A stretch of 64,000 bases of DNA from Eledone cirrhosa (taxonomy: Eukaryota). The stretch covers positions 107,147 to 171,146 of the forward strand of contig CAXHJY010000768.1 of the NCBI GenBank assembly GCA_964016885.1, read 5' to 3'. The notes beneath the pieces are model-generated. The model saw only the letters and a list, made by a program, of their open reading frames with translations, ran no database searches and had not been told where the DNA came from. The translations under genes and the position numbers were made by a program. Numbering within the stretch: the first letter of the stretch is position 1; every line of letters starts with the position of its first letter. Shown piece by piece: positions 11,964 through 61,289 of this stretch.

Positions 11964-11964
11964 T

Positions 11965-12290
11965 AGGTTACCATAGGGTAGGTTACTGTAGTGTTGGTAA
12001 CCATAGGGTAGGTTACCATAACGTAGGCTCCATAGGGTAGATTACCATAGGGTAGGCTACCATAGGGTAGGTTACCATAGGGTAGTTTACCATAGGGTAG
12101 GCTACCATAGGGTAGATTACCATAGGGTAGGCTACCATAGGGTAGATTACCATAGGGTAGGCTACCATAGGGTAGGTTACCATAGGGTAGTTTACCATAA
12201 GATATGTTACCATAGGGTAGGTTACTATAGTGTAGGTTACCGTAGGTTAGGTTACCATAAGATAGGTTACCATAGGGTAGATTACCATAG
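11965..12290. repeat. 15-bp minisatellite GGTTACCATAGGGTA
   Basis: Direct reading. Confidence 0.88.
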
Positions 12291-12599
12291 GTTCGTTAAG
12301 GTTAGGTTAGGTTGGTTTACTTGGTGAGTTAGAACCGACTTGCAACTGAAGTGTTTTAGAATAAGTACCTTAGCCTTTAGTGCGCTACTAAATTTTTTGA
12401 ATTATTTCCCCTGCAACTGCCTTATTTTTTTTTTTTGGGGGGGGGGGGATCGTCTTATCTGACGAATATCGGCCTAAACCTGAATTTCACCTCAGAACTT
12501 TAGGGGTCGACCTATGCACCGGATCTACTTGTATACGGTATATATATATATGTATGTATGTATGTACATATGTATAGAAATAGTCGAGCTGGATACTAG

Positions 12600-12920
12600 A
12601 TCGTGCGGTTAAACCACTGGGAGTGAAGGACCCCTAGCCTATGTCAGGGCATTCTTCTAGGAGAAGGCAATTCAGGAAACTGGGATAACTCCGATATAAA
12701 ACCTACAGCTCAGTAGTTACCGATGATGTTGATCTTTTCTTCTTTTCGCGTTATAGCTACTGTCTCTCAGAGAGTGGGATTGGCTCAGTGCACAGTCTTT
12801 CCTCACTTAAAAAAATATCTTCACGCACAGGCATTGCACGATAGCATTAATTAATAATTATTAATAATGGTATATTGTGCAATGGCTATACTCTATAACG
12901 AGGGGACAGCCATTATCATG
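12600..12920 (+). mobile_element. Unclassified non-coding interspersed repeat ending in (ATGT)n
   Basis: Near-identical to 25672-25985; 3' end also present at ~17272-17320. Confidence 0.7.
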
Positions 12921-13044
12921 TATGTATGTATGTATGTATGTATGTATGAATGTGTATGTGAATTCTTGGCCCGTGATTGGACGTTCTCTACACTTGTTTG
13001 TGTCTGGCTATTTTGTCCACAGATACAATGTGGTTGTGATAACA

Positions 13045-14253
13045 CTGGTCTGAGGATCAGGCAGATTTGGAATCTGGTCTGGAGCGTCAACTCTGTTCAT
13101 GAGCCAGCTGTTATGAATCTGGTCTGGAGCGTCAACTCTGTTCATGAGCCAGCTGTTATGAATCTGGTCTGGAGCGTCAACTCTGTTCATGAGCCAGCTG
13201 TTATGAATCTGGTCTGGAGCGTCAACTCTGTTCATGAGCCAGCTGTTATGAAACTGGAGTGGAGTGTCAACTCAGTTCAAGAACCAGCTGTTTGGGATCT
13301 GGTCTGGAGTGTCAACTCGGTTCACAGACCAGCTGTTTGGGATCTGGTCTGGAGTGTCAACTCGGTTCATCAGCCAGCTGTTTGGGATCTGGTCTGGAGT
13401 GTCAACTTGGTTCATCAGCCAGCTGTTTGGGATCTGGTCTGGAGCGTCAACTTGGTTCATCAGCCAGCTGTTTGGGATCTGGTCTGGAGTGTCAACTCGG
13501 TTCACAGACCAGCTGTTTGGGATCTGGTCTGGAGTGTCAACTCAGTTCAAGAACCAGCTGTTTGGGATCTGGTCTGGAGTGTCAACTTGGTTCATCAGCC
13601 AGCTGTTTGGGATCTGGTCTGGAGCGTCAACTTGGTTCATCAGCCAGCTGTTTGGGATCTGGTCTGGAGTGTCAACTTGGTTCATCAGCCAGCTGTTTGG
13701 GATCTGGTCTGGAGCGTCAACTTGGTTCATCAGCCAGCTGTTTGGGATCTGGTCTGGAGCGTCAACTTGGTTCATCAGCCAGCTGTTTGGGATCTGGTCT
13801 GGAGCGTCAACTTGGTTCATCAGCCAGCTGTTTGGGATCTGGTCTGGAGTGTCAACTTGGTTCATCAGCCAGCTGTTTGGGATCTGGTCTGGAGCGTCAA
13901 CTTGGTTCATCAGCCAGCTGTTTGGGATCTGGTCTGGAGCGTCAACTTGGTTCACAGACCAGCTGTTTGGGATCTGGTCTGGAGCGTCAACTTGGTTCAC
14001 AGACCAGCTGTTTGGGATCTGGTCTGGAGCGTCAACTCGGTTCAAGAACCAGCTGTTTGGGATCTGGTCTGGAGTGTCAACTTGGTTCATCAGCCAGCTG
14101 TTTGGGATCTGGTCTGGAGTGTCAACTTGGTTCATCAGCCAGCTGTTTGGGATCTGGTCTGGAGTGTCAACTTGGTTCATCAGCCAGCTGTTTGGGATCT
14201 GGTCTGGAGTGTCAACTCTGTTCATGAGCAAGTTGTTTGGGAAACGTAACTAG
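13045..14253 (+). ncRNA. Hammerhead ribozyme core split by a minisatellite in stem II
   Basis: CTGGT-CTGAGGA (13045-13056) ... GAAA-CG-TA-ACTAG (14241-14253); stem I CUGGU/ACUAG; stem II base UCAGGCAG/UUGUUUGG. Confidence 0.65.
13067..14240. repeat. 45-bp minisatellite, ~26 copies
   Basis: Unit TTGGGATCTGGTCTGGAG(C/T)GTCAACTTGGTTCATCAGCCAGCTGT. Confidence 0.95.
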
Positions 14254-14296
14254 GATTGAACAATAAATCTCTTATGTAACACCTCCACTTTGTTCT

Positions 14297-14344
<48 letters not shown>

Positions 14345-14706
14345 GTATAGTTAATACAAAGCATTGTGAGATATGTAGTAAAAGGCCGATAACTTTTTTT
14401 TTAATGGGAAAAAAACTCTGATCACTCGTTTTGTCTTGGACTATTTCAGGTTCCCATCTAAAAAGAGGGTAATGGCCCTGAAATATGCTGGGTAAAACAT
14501 TACTTTGTTCTATTTGTCATCATTTTGCCCTCCATATTTTGTACCAGCTTTTTTTATTTACTACCAATATATATATATAAACAAAACGCCAGCACCAACA
14601 GTTTTGCAAGAGATGTCAACAAGAATGGACCTATTATTTTTTTCTAAAGACATTTTTTCCAATTCCATCCCGCCCGTCCCCTCAATCTATTTTATTTCTC
14701 ATTCTT

Positions 14707-14742
14707 TCTTCTGATGAAGGACTAGCGTCCGAAACGTTAAGA
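14707..14742 (+). ncRNA. Minimal hammerhead ribozyme
   Basis: TCTT CTGATGA A GGAC-TAGC-GTCC GAAA CG TT AAGA; palindromic ACGU in place of stem III. Confidence 0.85.
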
Positions 14743-34817: not shown

Positions 34818-37800
34818 AGTATAGAATATGGTGTATAGAATATGGTGTATAGAATATGGTGTATAGAATATGGTGTATAGAATATGGTGTATAGAATATG
34901 GTGTATAGAATATGGTGTATAGAATATGGTGTATAGAATACATGTATAGAATATGGTGTATAGAATATGGTGTATAGAATATGGTGTATAGAATACAGTG
35001 TATAGAATATAGTGTATAGAATATGGTGTATAGAATATGGTGTATAGAATATGGTGTATAGAATATGGTGTATAGAATATGGTGTATAGAATATGGTGTA
35101 TAGAATATGGTGTATAGAATATGGTGTATAGAATACAGTGTATAGAATATGGTGTATAGAATATGGTGTATAGAATATGGTGTATAGAATACAGTGTATA
35201 GAATATGGTGTATAGAATATGGTGTACAGAATATGGTGTATAGAATATGGTGTATAGAATATGGTGTATAGAATACAGTGTATAGAATATGGTGTATAGA
35301 ATATGGTGTATAGAATATGGTGTATAGAATACAGTGTATAGAATATGGTGTATAGAATATGGTGTACAGAATATGGTGTATAGAATATGGTGTATAGAAT
35401 ATGGTGTATAGAATATGGTGTATAGAATACAGTGTATAGAATATAGTGTATAGAATATGGTGTATAGAATACAGTGTTTAGAATATGGTGTATAGAATAC
35501 AGTGTATAGAATATGGTGTATAGAATATGGTGTATAGAATATGGTGTATAGAATATGGTGTATAGAATATGGTGTATAGAATACATGTATAGAATATGGT
35601 GTATAGAATATGGTGTATAGAATATGGTGTATAGAATATGGTGTATAGAATATGGTGTATAGAATATGGTGTATAGAATATGGTGTATAGAATATGGTGT
35701 ATAGAATACAGTGTATAGAATATGGTGTATAGAATATGGTGTACAGAATATGGTGTATAGAATATGGTGTATAGAATATGGTGTATAGAATATGGTGTAT
35801 AGAATACAGTGTATAGAATATAGTGTATAGAATATGGTGTATAGAATATGGTGTATAGAATATGGTGTATAGAATATGGTGTATAGAATACATGTATAGA
35901 ATATGGTGTATAGAATATGGTGTATAGAATATGGTGTATAGAATACAGTGTATAGAATATAGTGTATAGAATATGGTGTATAGAATATGGTGTATAGAAT
36001 ATGGTGTATAGAATATGGTGTATAGAATATGGTGTATAGAATACATGTATAGAATATGGTGTATAGAATATGGTGTATAGAATATGGTGTATAGAATATG
36101 GTGTATAGAATACAGTGTATAGAATATGGTGTATAGAATATGGTGTATAGAATATGGTGTATAGAATATGGTGTATAGAATATGGTGTATAGAATATGGT
36201 GTACAGAATATGGTGTATAGAATATGGTGTATAGAATATGGTGTATAGAATATGGTGTATAGAATACAGTGTATAGAATATAGTGTATAGAATATGGTGT
36301 ACAGAATACATGTATAGAATATGGTGTATAGAATATGGTGTATAGAATATGGTGTATAGAATATGGTGTATAGAATATGGTGTATAGAATATGGTGTATA
36401 GAATACAGTGTATAGAATATAGTGTATAGAATATGGTGTATAGAATATAGTGTATAGAATATGGTGTATAGAATATGGTGTATAGAATATGGTGTATAGA
36501 ATATGGTGTATAGAATACAGTGTATAGAAAATGGTGTATAGAATATGGTGTATAGAATATGGTGTATAGAATATGGTGTATAGAATACATGTATAGAATA
36601 TGGTGTATAGAATATAGTGTACAGAATATGGTGTATAGAATATGGTGTATAGAATATGGTGTATAGAATATGGTGTATAGAATACAGTGTATAGAATATG
36701 GTGTATAGAATATGGTGTATAGAATATGGTGTATAGAATATGGTGTATAGAATACAGTGTATAGAATATGGTGTATAGAATATGGTGTATAGAATATGGT
36801 GTATAGAATATGGTGTATAGAATACATGTATAGAATATGGTGTATAGAATATGGTGTATAGAATATGGTGTATAGAATATGGTGTATAGAATACAGTGTA
36901 TAGAATATGGTGTATAGAATATGGTGTATAGAATACAGTGTATAGAATACGGTGTATAGAATATGGTGTATAGAATATGGTGTATAGAATATGGTGTATA
37001 GAATATGGTGTATAGAATATGGTGTATAGAATATGGTGTATAGAATATGGTGTATAGAATATGGTGTATAGAATATGGTGTATAGAATATGGTGTATAGA
37101 ATATGGTGTATAGAATATGGTGTATAGAATATGGTGTATAGAATATGGTGTATAGAATATGGTGTATAGAATACAGTGTATAGGATATGGTGTATAGAAT
37201 ATGGTGTATAGAATATGGTGTATAGAATATGGTGTATAGAATACAGTGTATAGAATATGGTGTATAGAATATGGTGTATAGAATATGGTGTATAGAATAT
37301 GGTGTATAGAATATGGTGTATAGAATATGGTGTATAGAATATGGTGTATAGAATATGGTGTATAGAATATGGTGTATAGAATATGGTGTATAGAATATGG
37401 TGTATAGAATACAGTGTATAGAATATGGTGTATAGAATATGGTGTATAGAATATGGTGTATAGAATACAGTGTATAGAATATGGTGTATAGAATATGGTG
37501 TATAGAATATGGTGTATAGAATATGGTGTATAGAATATGGTGTATAGAATACAGTGTATAGAATATGGTGTATAGAATATGGTGTATAGAATATGGTGTA
37601 TAGAATATGGTGTATAGAATATGGTGTATAGAATATGGTGTATAGAATATGGTGTATAGAATATGGTGTATAGAATATGGTGTATAGAATATGGTGTATA
37701 GAATATGGTGTATAGAATATGGTGTATAGAATACAGTGTATAGAATATGGTGTATAGAATATGGTGTATAGAATATGGTGTATAGAATACAGTGTATAGA

Positions 37801-40372
37801 ATATGGTGTATAGAATATGGTCTATAGAATATGGTGTATAGAATATGGTGTATAGAATACAGTGTATAGAATATGGTGTATAGAATATGGTGTATAGAAT
37901 ACAGTGTATAGAATATGGTGTACAGAATATGGTGTATAGAATATGGTGTATAGAATACAGTGTATAGAATATGGTGTATAGAATACGGTGTATAGAATAT
38001 GGTGTATAGAATATGGTGTATAGAATACAGTGTATAGAATATGGTGTATAGAATATGGTGTATAGAATATGGTGTATAGAATATGGTGTATAGAATACAG
38101 TGTATAGAATATGGTGTATAGAATACAGTGTATAGAATATGGTGTACAGAATATGGTGTATAGAATATGGTGTATAGAATACAGTGTATAGAATATGGTG
38201 TATAGAATATGGTGTATAGAATATGGTGTATAGAATATGGTGTATAGAATATGGTGTATAGAATATGGTGTATAGAATATGGTGTATAGAATATGGTGTA
38301 TAGAATATGGTGTATAGAATACAGTGTATAGAATATGGTGTATAGAATATGGTGTATAGAATATGGTGTATAGAATATGGTGTATAGAATACATGTATAG
38401 AATATGGTGTATAGAATATGGTGTATAGAATATGGTGTATAGAATATGGTGTATAGAATATGGTGTATAGAATATGGTGTATAGAATATGGTGTATAGAA
38501 TACAGTGTATAGAATATGGTGTATAGAATATGGTGTATAGAATATGGTGTATAGAATATGGTGTATAGAATATGGTGTATAGAATATGGTGTATAGAATA
38601 TGGTGTATAGAATATGGTGTATAGAATACAGTGTATAGAATATGGTGTATAGAATACAGTGTATAGAATATGGTGTATAGAATATGGTGTATAGAATATG
38701 GTGTATAGAATATGGTGTATAGAATATGGTGTATAGAATATGGTGTATAGAATATGGTGTATAGAATATGGTGTATAGAATATGGTGTATAGAATACAGT
38801 GTATAGAATATGGTGTATAGAATATGGTGTATAGAATATGGTGTATAGAATATGGTGTATAGAATATGGTGTATAGAATATGGTGTATAGAATATGGTGT
38901 ATAGAATATAGTGTATAGAATACAGTGTATAGAATATGGTGTATAGAATACAGTGTATAGAATATGGTGTATAGAATATGGTGTATAGAATACAGTGTAT
39001 AGAATATGGTGTATAGAATACAGTGTATAGAATATGGTGTATAGAATATGGTGTATAGAATACAGTGTATAGAATATGGTGTATAGAATACAGTGTATAG
39101 AATATGGTGTATAGAATATGGTGTATAGAATACAGTGTATAGAATATGGTGTATAGAATATGGTGTATAGAATATGGTGTATAGTATATGGTGTATAGAA
39201 TACAGTGTATAGAATATGGTGTATAGAATACAGTGTATAGAATATGGTGTATAGAATATGGTGTATAGAATATGGTGTATAGAATACAGTGTATAGAATA
39301 TGGTGTATAGAATACAGTGTATAGAATATGGTGTATAGAATATGGTGTATAGAATACAGTGTATAGAATATGGTGTATAGAATATGGTGTATAGAATATG
39401 GTGTATAGAATATGGTGTATAGAATATGGTGTATAGAATATGGTGTATAAAATACAGTGTATAGAATATGGTGTATAGAATATGGTGTATAGAATATGGT
39501 GTATAGAATATGGTGTATAGAATATGGTGTATAGAATATGGTGTATAGAATACAGTGTATAGAATATGGTGTATAGAATATGGTGTATAGAATATGGTGT
39601 ATAGAATATGGTGTATAGAATATGGTGTATAGAATATGGTGTATAGAATATGGTGTATAGAATATGGTGTATAGAATATGGTGTATAGAATATGGTGTAT
39701 AGAATATGGTGTATAGAATACAGTGTATAGAATATGGTGTATAGAATATGGTGTATAGAATATGGTGTATAGAATATGGTGTATAGAATATGGTGTATAG
39801 AATATGGTGTATAGAATATGGTGTATAGAATATGGTGTATAGAATACAGTGTATAGAATATGGTGTATAGAATATGGTGTATAGAATATGGTGTATAGAA
39901 TATGGTGTATAGAATACAGTGTATAGAATATGGTGTATAGAATATGGTGTATAGAATATGGTGTATAGAATATGGTGTATAGAATACAGTGTATAGAATA
40001 TGGTGTATAGTATATGGTGTATAGAATACAGTGTATAGAATATGGTGTACAGAATATGGTGTATAGAATACAGTGTATAGAATATGGTGTATAGAATACG
40101 GTGTATAGAATATGGTGTATAGAATATGGTGTATAGAATACGGTGTATAGAATACAGTGTATAGAATATGGTGTATAGAATATGGTGTATAGAATATGGT
40201 GTATAGAATATGGTGTATAGAATACAGTGTATAGAATATGGTGTATAGAATATGGTGTATAGAATATAGTGTATAGAATATCGTGTATAGAATACAGTGT
40301 ATAGAATATGGTGTATAGAATATGGTGTATAGAATATGGTGTATAGAATATGGTGTATAGAATACGGTGTAT
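34818..40372. repeat. 14-bp satellite GTATAGAATATGGT, ~400 copies
   Basis: Direct reading; common variants GTATAGAATACAGT and the 13-bp GTATAGAATACAT. Confidence 0.97.
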
Positions 40373-40611
40373 CTTGGTTGTCCATCGTAAACGATGATGA
40401 CATTTTCATGATATATATATATATCATCATCATCAACGTCCATCTTCCACGCTAGCATGGGTTAGACGGGAGTTGTCCCACTTGAGGCAAGGTTGGTCGG
40501 GTGACCGTGTCTCGCTCATATAGGACTATCTGGCAGGTTTTCTACAGCTGGATGCCCTTCCTAACACCAACTACATTGACAGTGTGGAACTGGGAACTTA
40601 TTACCGTGTTA

Positions 40612-43073
40612 CCTACACGGCCACATTACAGCGTGGACTGTGTGTTTTTTGTCGTGACACCTACACGGCCACATTACAGCGTGGACTGTGTGTTTTTTGT
40701 CGTGACACCTACACGGCCACATTACAGCGTGGACTGTGTGTTTTTTGTCGTGACACCTACACGGCCACATTACAGCGTGGACTGTGTGTTTTTTGTCGTG
40801 ACACCTACACGGCCACATTACAGCGTGGACTGTGTGTTTTTTGTTGTGACACCTACACGGCCACATTACAGCGTGGACTGTGTGTTTTTTTGTTGTGACA
40901 CCTACACGACCACATTACAGCGTGGACTGTGTGTTTTTTGTCGTGACACCTACACGGCCACATTACAGCGTGGACTGTGTGTTTTTTGTCGTGACACCTA
41001 CACGGCCACATTACAGCGTGGACTGTGTGTTTTTTTGTTGTGACACCTACACGACCACATTACAGCGTGGACTGTGTGTTTTTTGTCGTGACACCTACAC
41101 GGCCACATTACAGCATGGACTGTGTGTTTTTTGTCGTGACACCTACACGGCCACATTACAGCGTGGACTGTGTGTTTTTTCTCGTGACACCTACACGGCC
41201 ACATTACAGCGTGGACTGTGTGTTTTTTGTCGTGACACCTACACGGCCACATTACAGCATGGACTGTGTGTTTTTTGTCGTGACACCTACACGGCCACAT
41301 TACAGCATGGACTGTGTGTTTTTTGTCGTGACACCTACACGGCCACATTACAGCGTGGACTGTGTGTTTTTTGTCGTGACACCTACACGGCCACATTACA
41401 GCATGGACTGTGTGTTTTTTGTCGTGACACCTACACGGCCACATTACAGCGTGGACTGTGTGTTTTTTGTCGTGACACCTACACGGCCACATTACAGCGT
41501 GGACTGTGTGTTTTTTGTCGTGACACCTACACGGCCACATTACAGCGTGGACTGTGTGTTTTTTGTCGTGACACCTACACGGCCACATTACAGCGTGGAC
41601 TGTGTGTTTTTTGTCGTGACACCTACACGGCCACATTACAGCGTGGACTGTGTGTTTTTTGTCGTGACACCTACACATCCACATTACAGCGTGGACTGTG
41701 TGTTTTTTGTCGTGACATCTACACGGCCACATTACAGCGTGGACTGTGTGTTTTTTGTCGTGACACCTACACATCCACATTACAGCGTGGACTGTGTGTT
41801 TTTTGTCGTGACACCTACACGGCCACATTACAGCGTGGACTGTGTGTTTTTTTGTTGTGACACCTACACGACCACATTACAGCGTGGACTGTGTGTTTTT
41901 TGTCGTGACACCTACACGGCCACATTACAGTGTGGACTGTGTGTTTTTTGTCGTGACACCTACACGGCCACATTACAGCGTGGACTGTGTGTTTTTTGTC
42001 GTGACACCTACACGGCCACATTACAGCGTGGACTGTGTGTTTTTTGTTGTGACACCTACACGGCCACATTACAGCGTGGACTGTGTGTTTTTTTGTTGTG
42101 ACACCTACACGACCACATTACAGCGTGGACTGTGTGTTTTTTGTCGTGACACCTACACGGCCACATTACAGCGTGGACTGTGTGTTTTTTGTCGTGACAC
42201 CTACACGGCCACATTACAGCGTGGACTGTGTGTTTTTTTGTTGTGACACCTACACGACCACATTACAGCGTGGACTGTGTGTTTTTTGTCGTGACACCTA
42301 CACGGCCACATTACAGCGTGGACTGTGTGTTTTTTGTCGTGACACCTACACATCCACATTACAGCGTGGACTGTGTGTTTTTTGTCGTGACATCTACACG
42401 GCCACATTACAGCGTGGACTGTGTGTTTTTTGTCGTGACACCTACACATCCACATTACAGCGTGGACTGTGTGTTTTTTGTCGTGACACCTACACGGCCA
42501 CATTACAGCGTGGACTGTGTGTTTTTTTGTTGTGACACCTACACGACCACATTACAGCGTGGACTGTGTGTTTTTTGTCGTGACACCTACACGGCCACAT
42601 TACAGCATGGACTGTGTGTTTTTTGTCGTGACACCTACACGGCCACATTACAGCGTGGACTGTGTGTTTTTTCTCGTGACACCTACACGGCCACATTACA
42701 GCGTGGACTGTGTGTTTTTTGTCGTGACACCTACACGGCCACATTACAGCATGGACTGTGTGTTTTTTGTCGTGACACCTACACGGCCACATTACAGCAT
42801 GGACTGTGTGTTTTTTGTCGTGACACCTACACGGCCACATTACAGCGTGGACTGTGTGTTTTTTGTCGTGACACCTACACGGCCACATTACAGCATGGAC
42901 TGTGTGTTTTTTGTCGTGACACCTACACGGCCACATTACAGCGTGGACTGTGTGTTTTTTGTCGTGACACCTAGACGGCCACATTACAGCGTGGACTGTG
43001 TGTTTTTTGTCGTGACACCTACACGGCCACATTACAGCGTGGACTGTGTGTTTTTTGTCGTGACACCTACACG
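40612..43073. repeat. 48-bp minisatellite, ~51 copies, inside an RTE 3'UTR (minus strand, 40425-43385)
   Basis: Unit CCTACACGGCCACATTACAGCGTGGACTGTGTGTTTTTTGTCGTGACA; single-copy in other RTE 3'UTRs of the window. Confidence 0.95.

Positions 43074-60594: not shown

Positions 60595-61289
<695 letters not shown>

Follow-up and report, generated by a model that had tools for sequence, protein, structure and literature searches.

Why should a minisatellite of some 1.2 kb stand exactly between the two halves of a hammerhead ribozyme core, and could the number of its units matter to a ribozyme? This question is raised by one locus of Eledone cirrhosa, within the 64,000 nucleotides that we analyzed as a whole and hereafter call the window (contig CAXHJY010000768.1, positions 107,147 to 171,146). 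The original prediction, made from the letters alone, held that a 45-bp repeat had expanded in the stem II loop of a pLTR hammerhead and that its copy number could affect folding and self-cleavage. The elements on which it drew are all present (table 1): both bracketing core halves with their stem I strands, stem I itself (5/5 pairs kept, one of them G-U), the base of stem II (7/7 pairs kept, three of them G-U), and the AATAAA and (TA)n that follow the array; the type I core consensus (CUGANGA, GAAA, and UH) is likewise found in the window copy. We regard it as probable that the locus is a single-locus minisatellite lodged in the hammerhead of a decayed pLTR, likely of the Hydra clade of Penelope-like elements (PLEs), that it began as a likely slippage duplication of the stem II hairpin between TTTGG repeats and likely grew at the DNA level, and that its ribozyme, as predicted, can no longer fold.

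Table 1. Features of the array and of the element copy around it (positions in the window; a dot marks features given without strand).
Feature	Position	Strand	Remark
Incidental open frame, 463 codons	12858..14249	+	not a gene
(ATGT)n	12918..12953	.	5' side
Putative 5'-truncated solo pLTR (3' end), Penelope-like element	12958..14299	+	about 220 bp minus extra units; ends approximate
Putative hammerhead stem I, 5' strand (CTGGT)	13045..13049	+	
Catalytic core, first half CTGAGGA (CUGAGGA)	13050..13056	+	
Stem II basal 5' arm	13058..13064	+	single copy
TTTGG direct repeat	13066..13070	+	left boundary of duplicated segment; same 5 bases end 22/26 units
Minisatellite	13071..14240	+	26 x 45 bp; unit = upper stem II hairpin + whole 3' arm
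Stem II basal 3' arm, last unit	14233..14239	+	only such arm with core next to it
Core second half and stem III remnant (GAAAC-GT-A)	14241..14248	+	predicted cleavage after A14248
Stem I, 3' strand (ACTAG)	14249..14253	+	
AATAAA	14262..14267	+	family-conserved
(TA)n	14300..14341	.	element 3' end; likewise in many sister copies

When searched against the species' own genome (3.0 Gb), the 5' and 3' flanks of the array each match a dispersed repeat, at least 41 times (best 40 of 320 candidates) and at least 43 times (best 40 of 446), respectively, and at many loci the matches to the two flanks are found a few bases from each other, on either side of one unit copy. As both flanks match a dispersed family and adjoin around a single unit, the bracketing of the array is not due to chance. 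Such compact copies, proposed as a check by the original prediction, were also recovered with an exact two-anchor pattern (61 copies, against 0 for the reversed control), and the pLTR hammerhead motif that it proposed is supported. A 19-base anchor finds 173 matches in the genome, about 19 of which are, by reading, units of the sister arrays described below, which leaves about 150 loci. The family is old: its copies diverge from the column majority by 10-22%, and an intact ORF is found at 0/25 loci carrying the endonuclease of the element; the flanks of the window copy differ from the family's commonest letter at 9/112 and 10/103 columns. At G000:C12:17.03-17.37 Mb, six element copies share one orientation and are mostly spaced by about 60 kb, likely the product of a large tandem duplication.

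The compact motif reads as a type I hammerhead, in which a stem I of 5 bp is followed by CUGAGGA, a stem II region of 59 nt, GAAA, and the stem III ACA-UU-UGU, cleavage being predicted after GUA. We aligned the 69 near-complete of 86 distinct segments, leaving out 17 partial ones, and, because RNAalifold returned a consensus with no pairs on these 69 decayed copies, counted pairs on a structure drawn from single-copy folds. Paired states occupy 91.7% of 2063 cells, versus 20-43% in slid controls, a value inflated (as is conservation) in stems I and III because 30 loci had been picked on exact anchors there. Covariation, which had been suggested as a check on stems I and II, proved weak among these decayed paralogues of one family: pairs with two-sided change number 7 versus 5.9 after shuffling (174/500 shuffles as high), and cells 19 versus 13.0 (20/500 shuffles as high). 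Among single copies, two compact ones fold well (z of -3.5 and -2.8) and three of the window's own subfamily fold poorly (z of -0.2, +0.5, and -1.0). Given this weak covariation, it is the conserved core, the pairing, and the element context that support our reading of the window motif as a putative hammerhead, its self-cleavage being a prediction from sequence. The Rfam hammerhead models gave no match in the window at gathering score, and none of the 116 Rfam matches with E up to 5 that eight loci gave is a hammerhead; the compact motif at 14711 of the window was missed as well. Rfam thus passes over a PLE hammerhead whose stem II region spans 59 nt, which suggests that PLE ribozymes are under-counted. 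The compact minimal motif just mentioned (14706-14737, plus strand) belongs to another family, with near-identical copies in L020 and L031.

As to stem III, the original prediction did not hold: the loop-less GAAA-CG-TA state that it took as the design of the core occurs in 0/69 aligned copies, the family reading GAAAC-ATTT-GTA, with ACA-TT-TGT as stem III. The window copy lacks 4 nt of this stem and loop and cannot close its stem III as a monomer. The same deletion accompanied by a core is found in 0/7 other genome matches at up to 3 mismatches, and four-base losses of stem III in other registers are seen in 2 matches among sister copies, which argues for decay rather than design in the window copy. 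A subfamily of minimal hammerheads was also considered and rejected, since the deletion form matches only itself exactly in the genome. In other PLEs, according to PMC4209133, a loop-less palindromic stem III works in dimers, and this dimer-only motif is the GAAAC-GUA of the window copy; the deletion alone need not, therefore, have killed activity. Unlike the minimal hammerheads described there, however, the window form is a one-off deletion and not a family design.

The parent element is most likely, judging from sequence features, a Penelope-like element of the Hydra clade. Longer copies carry upstream a broken ORF ending in a GIY-YIG endonuclease (PF01541 at E 8.5e-5 in 1/8 frames; Atlas score 0.95, in a cluster that is 46% PF01541), and a whole ribozyme lies downstream on the same strand at 4/25 endonuclease loci, one of them being the query's own. 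The CxCX5C linker, CxxC, and CxH motifs are found in the natural frames of L107, L112, L114, L099, and L115, and, by eye in these decayed copies, a single cysteine lies between the GIY-YIG halves where a CCHH motif was looked for. The family also shows (TA)n targets, 5' truncation, and inverted partial copies. The five extended copies, read for the RWK and DKT motifs, are all 5'-truncated and keep only part of an RT-like region; a Pfam RT domain was not matched in the 8 frames scanned. In PMC8557442, Hydra-clade elements are described with a C-terminal GIY-YIG bearing the same three motifs, (TA)n targets, inverted truncated copies, and a pLTR type I hammerhead whose stem III measures 3-4 bp and whose stem II has an additional base at its foot, features that the Eledone family shares; it is the match of the GIY-YIG-linked motifs, the targets, and the stem III type to this description that supports the assignment. 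By contrast, in the Hydra entries listed there some 12-26 nt separate the core halves, versus 59 nt in the Eledone family, whose stem II region is thus unusual. The octopus Hydra ribozyme in that list is unlike the Eledone one in sequence, and only the Selaginella PLE-X elements, flagged as non-canonical, have a comparably long stem II among the listed elements.

Within this copy, the array consists of 26 whole units in 10 variants (TRF: 13066-14242, period 45, 26.2 copies, 94% matches), which lack both halves of the hammerhead core and are bounded at both ends by the TTTGG direct repeat. The claim that it arose from stem II thus stands in so far as the array lies inside that stem; the segment amplified was not the loop alone, though, but the upper part of the hairpin, with both arms and the loop. 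Along the array, the variants follow the order AAAABCDEFCGEFEFFFEFHHIEEEJ, with a mean of 4.5 differences; their arrangement in blocks of identical units suggests growth in several rounds. The junction between units has 25 genome matches, 24 of which are at the window locus and the last of which is isolated and outside any array, and all multi-unit DNA matches also map to the window locus (12/12 candidates scored). A mobile form of the 45-bp array was rejected on these grounds, the junction being found in tandem, and several units together, at the window locus only. All 26 units share a T where 68/69 family copies have A; this T breaks a stem II pair, which suggests that the amplified copy was already non-standard. 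The same T is seen in 1/17 partial copies (L058) and may be a minor-subfamily variant, so that it speaks weakly on timing and is no proof that decay preceded amplification. On the whole, the array is best described as a transposon-derived minisatellite, probably without function.

How such an array could be born can be outlined as follows. A hairpin formed on a slipped strand would have stabilized a first duplication between the TTTGG repeats, after which further slippage or unequal exchange would have produced the blocks of identical units; each extra unit would then act as a decoy 3' arm, a local hairpin burying the core and folding failing from 2-3 units on, and the array would be under no selected function. 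Against this outline, present-day units are predicted to form only weak hairpins as single-stranded DNA (-2.2 to -8.8 kcal/mol). In its favor, minisatellites derived from transposons are common (PMC9659126). The stem II region shortens as well: internal deletions are seen in sister copies (L003, L010, L038, L059, L063, and G000:C5:110104757), suggesting instability in both directions. Of 4 genome matches, 2 are relatives that have a short stem II and share the core and the style of stem III (G000:C2:75491965 and C18:39475500); the exact reciprocal deletion of the unit is not among the 4, which also counts against the outline.

The same region of the ribozyme has given rise to arrays elsewhere. 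A junction-blind search found, among the matches listed (100/173), four other loci with arrays of 26-48 bp, namely C13 (48 bp x 10.9), C22 (26 bp x 3.8 and 47 bp x 22), and C25 (47 bp x 9); with the window, this makes five arrays and four junctions in one 90-bp segment. In every sister array, the duplicated part takes in the first half of the core with the stem II 5' arm, and the units lack the second core half. One 47-bp junction (stem II apical loop to stem I start) is shared by C22, C25, and C1054, which have unrelated flanks, and has 1 nt of microhomology only, so that DNA slippage explains it poorly at these loci. These observations bear on a second reading, in which seed duplications are made at retrotransposition, the reverse transcriptase stalling in the long hairpin and jumping back, or a duplicated master being mobilized, with expansion at the DNA level occurring later at some sites. 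The recurrence of that junction at three unrelated sites with so little microhomology indeed favors a seed at the RNA stage for those loci, where C1054 holds a partial duplication that lies between (TA)n tracts and whose halves have different loop sequences, and where the duplications leave the last ribozyme whole, with predicted penalties of 4.7 versus 1.8 kcal/mol at C25 and of 6.4 versus 5.9 at C1054. At the window, on the other hand, the junction is unique, splits the ribozyme, and carries a direct repeat of 5 nt, as is typical of slippage in DNA, which favors such an origin there; moreover, no active element was found. As an account of the origin, seeding at retrotransposition strikes us as unlikely.

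These arrays make the hairpin of stem II a likely recurrent birthplace of minisatellites. Six control anchors in the pLTR, outside the core and stem II, gave 0/6 family-derived arrays of at least 3 units, judged from the listed matches and from three loci that were read, and one two-copy duplication of the element's 3' end (L182). This suggests, without proving it, that the ribozyme hairpin is a hotspot for minisatellite birth: the anchor on the ribozyme was chosen after its hits had been seen, and minisatellites abound in this genome, with 119 TRF rows in the 64-kb window. A tandem 3'-arm pattern had 0 matches, a search blind to the window array itself, so that exact-pattern tests miss cases. 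Both GC and hairpin strength set the ribozyme segment apart from its flanks, its predicted fold as single-stranded DNA being stronger in 6/6 copies (-5.8 to -16.4 versus -0.5 to -6.1 kcal/mol). A higher density of microhomology was rejected as the cause, short direct repeats numbering 11-21 in the segment and 4-28 in the flanks. A tentative extension, which may hold but which we rather doubt, is that the long-stemmed hammerhead works as a minisatellite factory, the hairpin setting the breakpoints and at least one duplication having arisen in, or passed through, an RNA stage, reached three unrelated sites in this way, and expanded afterwards. If this were true, a retroelement ribozyme would seed tandem repeats genome-wide, and such long-stem ribozymes would escape standard searches. 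A distinct dispersed minisatellite family, with a shared core and units of 31-50 bp, occupies about 15 loci on C1, C2, C4, C7, C8, C11, C17, C20, C21, C23, and C24, and is not derived from the PLE in the two loci read.

With regard to copy number, we computed what it costs to impose stems I and II on the RNA while the core is left open, under a nearest-neighbor model, which leaves aside tertiary contacts, protein help, and stem III. The predicted cost is 11.3 kcal/mol for the full 1218-nt window RNA, against a median of 2.9 (range 1.6-16.8) for 39 of the 69 compact copies, hand-chosen for a recognizable core, some of which score worse than the window RNA. With the window flanks and only the last 1, 2, 3, or 4 units, it is predicted at 3.9, 8.3, 10.2, and 9.8 kcal/mol, and with the last 6, 9, 13, or 18 units at 9.7, 9.7, 10.2, and 10.6; as the RNA is predicted to fold, the first half of the core is buried in a local hairpin. 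The expectation that copy number affects folding is thus borne out in part, the predicted cost going up from 3.9 kcal/mol with one unit to about 10 with three, but not as a graded control, since it is flat thereafter. Saturation at 2-3 units would make copy number an off switch rather than a dial, and, under this model, extra units are predicted to stop the ribozyme from folding rather than to tune it. That a functional ribozyme is tuned by repeat number, for instance by acting on a host transcript or as a dimer, is accordingly very improbable. Its core, stem I, and stem II base are pairable across 1.2 kb, its stem III remnant is a palindrome of the dimer type (PMC4209133), and one PLE ribozyme is assisted by protein, its cleavage being dispensable for insertion in vitro (PMC11167929); however, the predicted penalty levels off at 3 units, additional G-U changes are seen in the last unit and in stem I, the losses in stem III are those expected from decay, and no host gene was seen in the window, where the long frames resemble, by eye, retroelements or simple repeats. 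We give even less credence to a gene for a repetitive protein or to an assembly artefact: the open frame, 463 codons from stop to stop with upstream ATGs, crosses a microsatellite and the pLTR and, as 45 is divisible by three and each of the three plus-strand frames stays open along most of the array (463, 329, and 333 codons), is as incidental as had been proposed, and ten ordered unit variants, together with a public contig (run X1, possibly the source sample) showing the unit-to-unit junction as well as a C13-type junction, speak against an artefact. With respect to the array as a candidate VNTR, the three sequencing runs that contain its sequence come from one sample, and no RNA run was among those listed; the contigs built from them were mostly paralogues, with no piece reaching the first 40 bases of the 5' flank.

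Transposon-derived minisatellites, PLE hammerheads, and PLE-derived retrozymes are all well known. As in the minisatellites derived from Alu, B1, and MaLR (PMC9659126), a short internal segment of an element was amplified in tandem at one locus, and repeatedly so in different copies; in contrast with these, the seed is here a ribozyme hairpin, and Penelope has 0 mentions in the main text of that review. Non-LTR retrozymes are likewise tandem repeats with a PLE pLTR origin and a link to type I hammerheads, but hold, according to 10.64898/2026.07.22.740005, a complete ribozyme per unit, whereas the 26-48-bp units of Eledone hold part of one; for want of a whole ribozyme in their units, the latter do not qualify as retrozymes. 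Arrays inside a hammerhead motif are absent from the entries of PMC8557442 that we consulted, and the literature searched, mostly outside subscription papers, holds no report of a minisatellite inside a hammerhead. From an evolutionary perspective, the array is probably dead DNA, whose value is that of a dated record of minisatellite birth: with many copies still in the ancestral single-unit state, and with four junctions in one 90-bp hairpin, slippage and RT jumping can be compared directly. Cleavage assays could also draw on the natural series of 1, 2, 9, 11, and 26 units that the loci provide, some placed inside the core and others upstream of it. To us, the points of moderate interest are the long-stemmed motif and the repeated birth of arrays in a single ribozyme hairpin.

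Further motifs and arrays were observed along the way. A second hammerhead-like motif of unrelated sequence, with a stem II region of about 67 nt, lies on the minus strand of L072 (916-1001), suggesting that long stems may be common in the genome. In the window, an inverted hammerhead pair (52497, minus strand, and 55025, plus strand) lies in inverted repeats around a 603-codon frame (from 52904, plus strand), which, judged by eye from its motifs, resembles a PLE reverse transcriptase. Another inverted pair, of partial hammerhead motifs with a stem II of about 30 nt, ends in (TA)n at about 60690-60850 and has relatives in L010 and L178. Tandem repeats of the window include a 15-bp array of 22 copies, continued by a few GGTTA repeats of telomere-like sequence (11964-12320), and a 14-bp array of 397 copies adjoining a 48-bp array of 51 copies (34819-43073).
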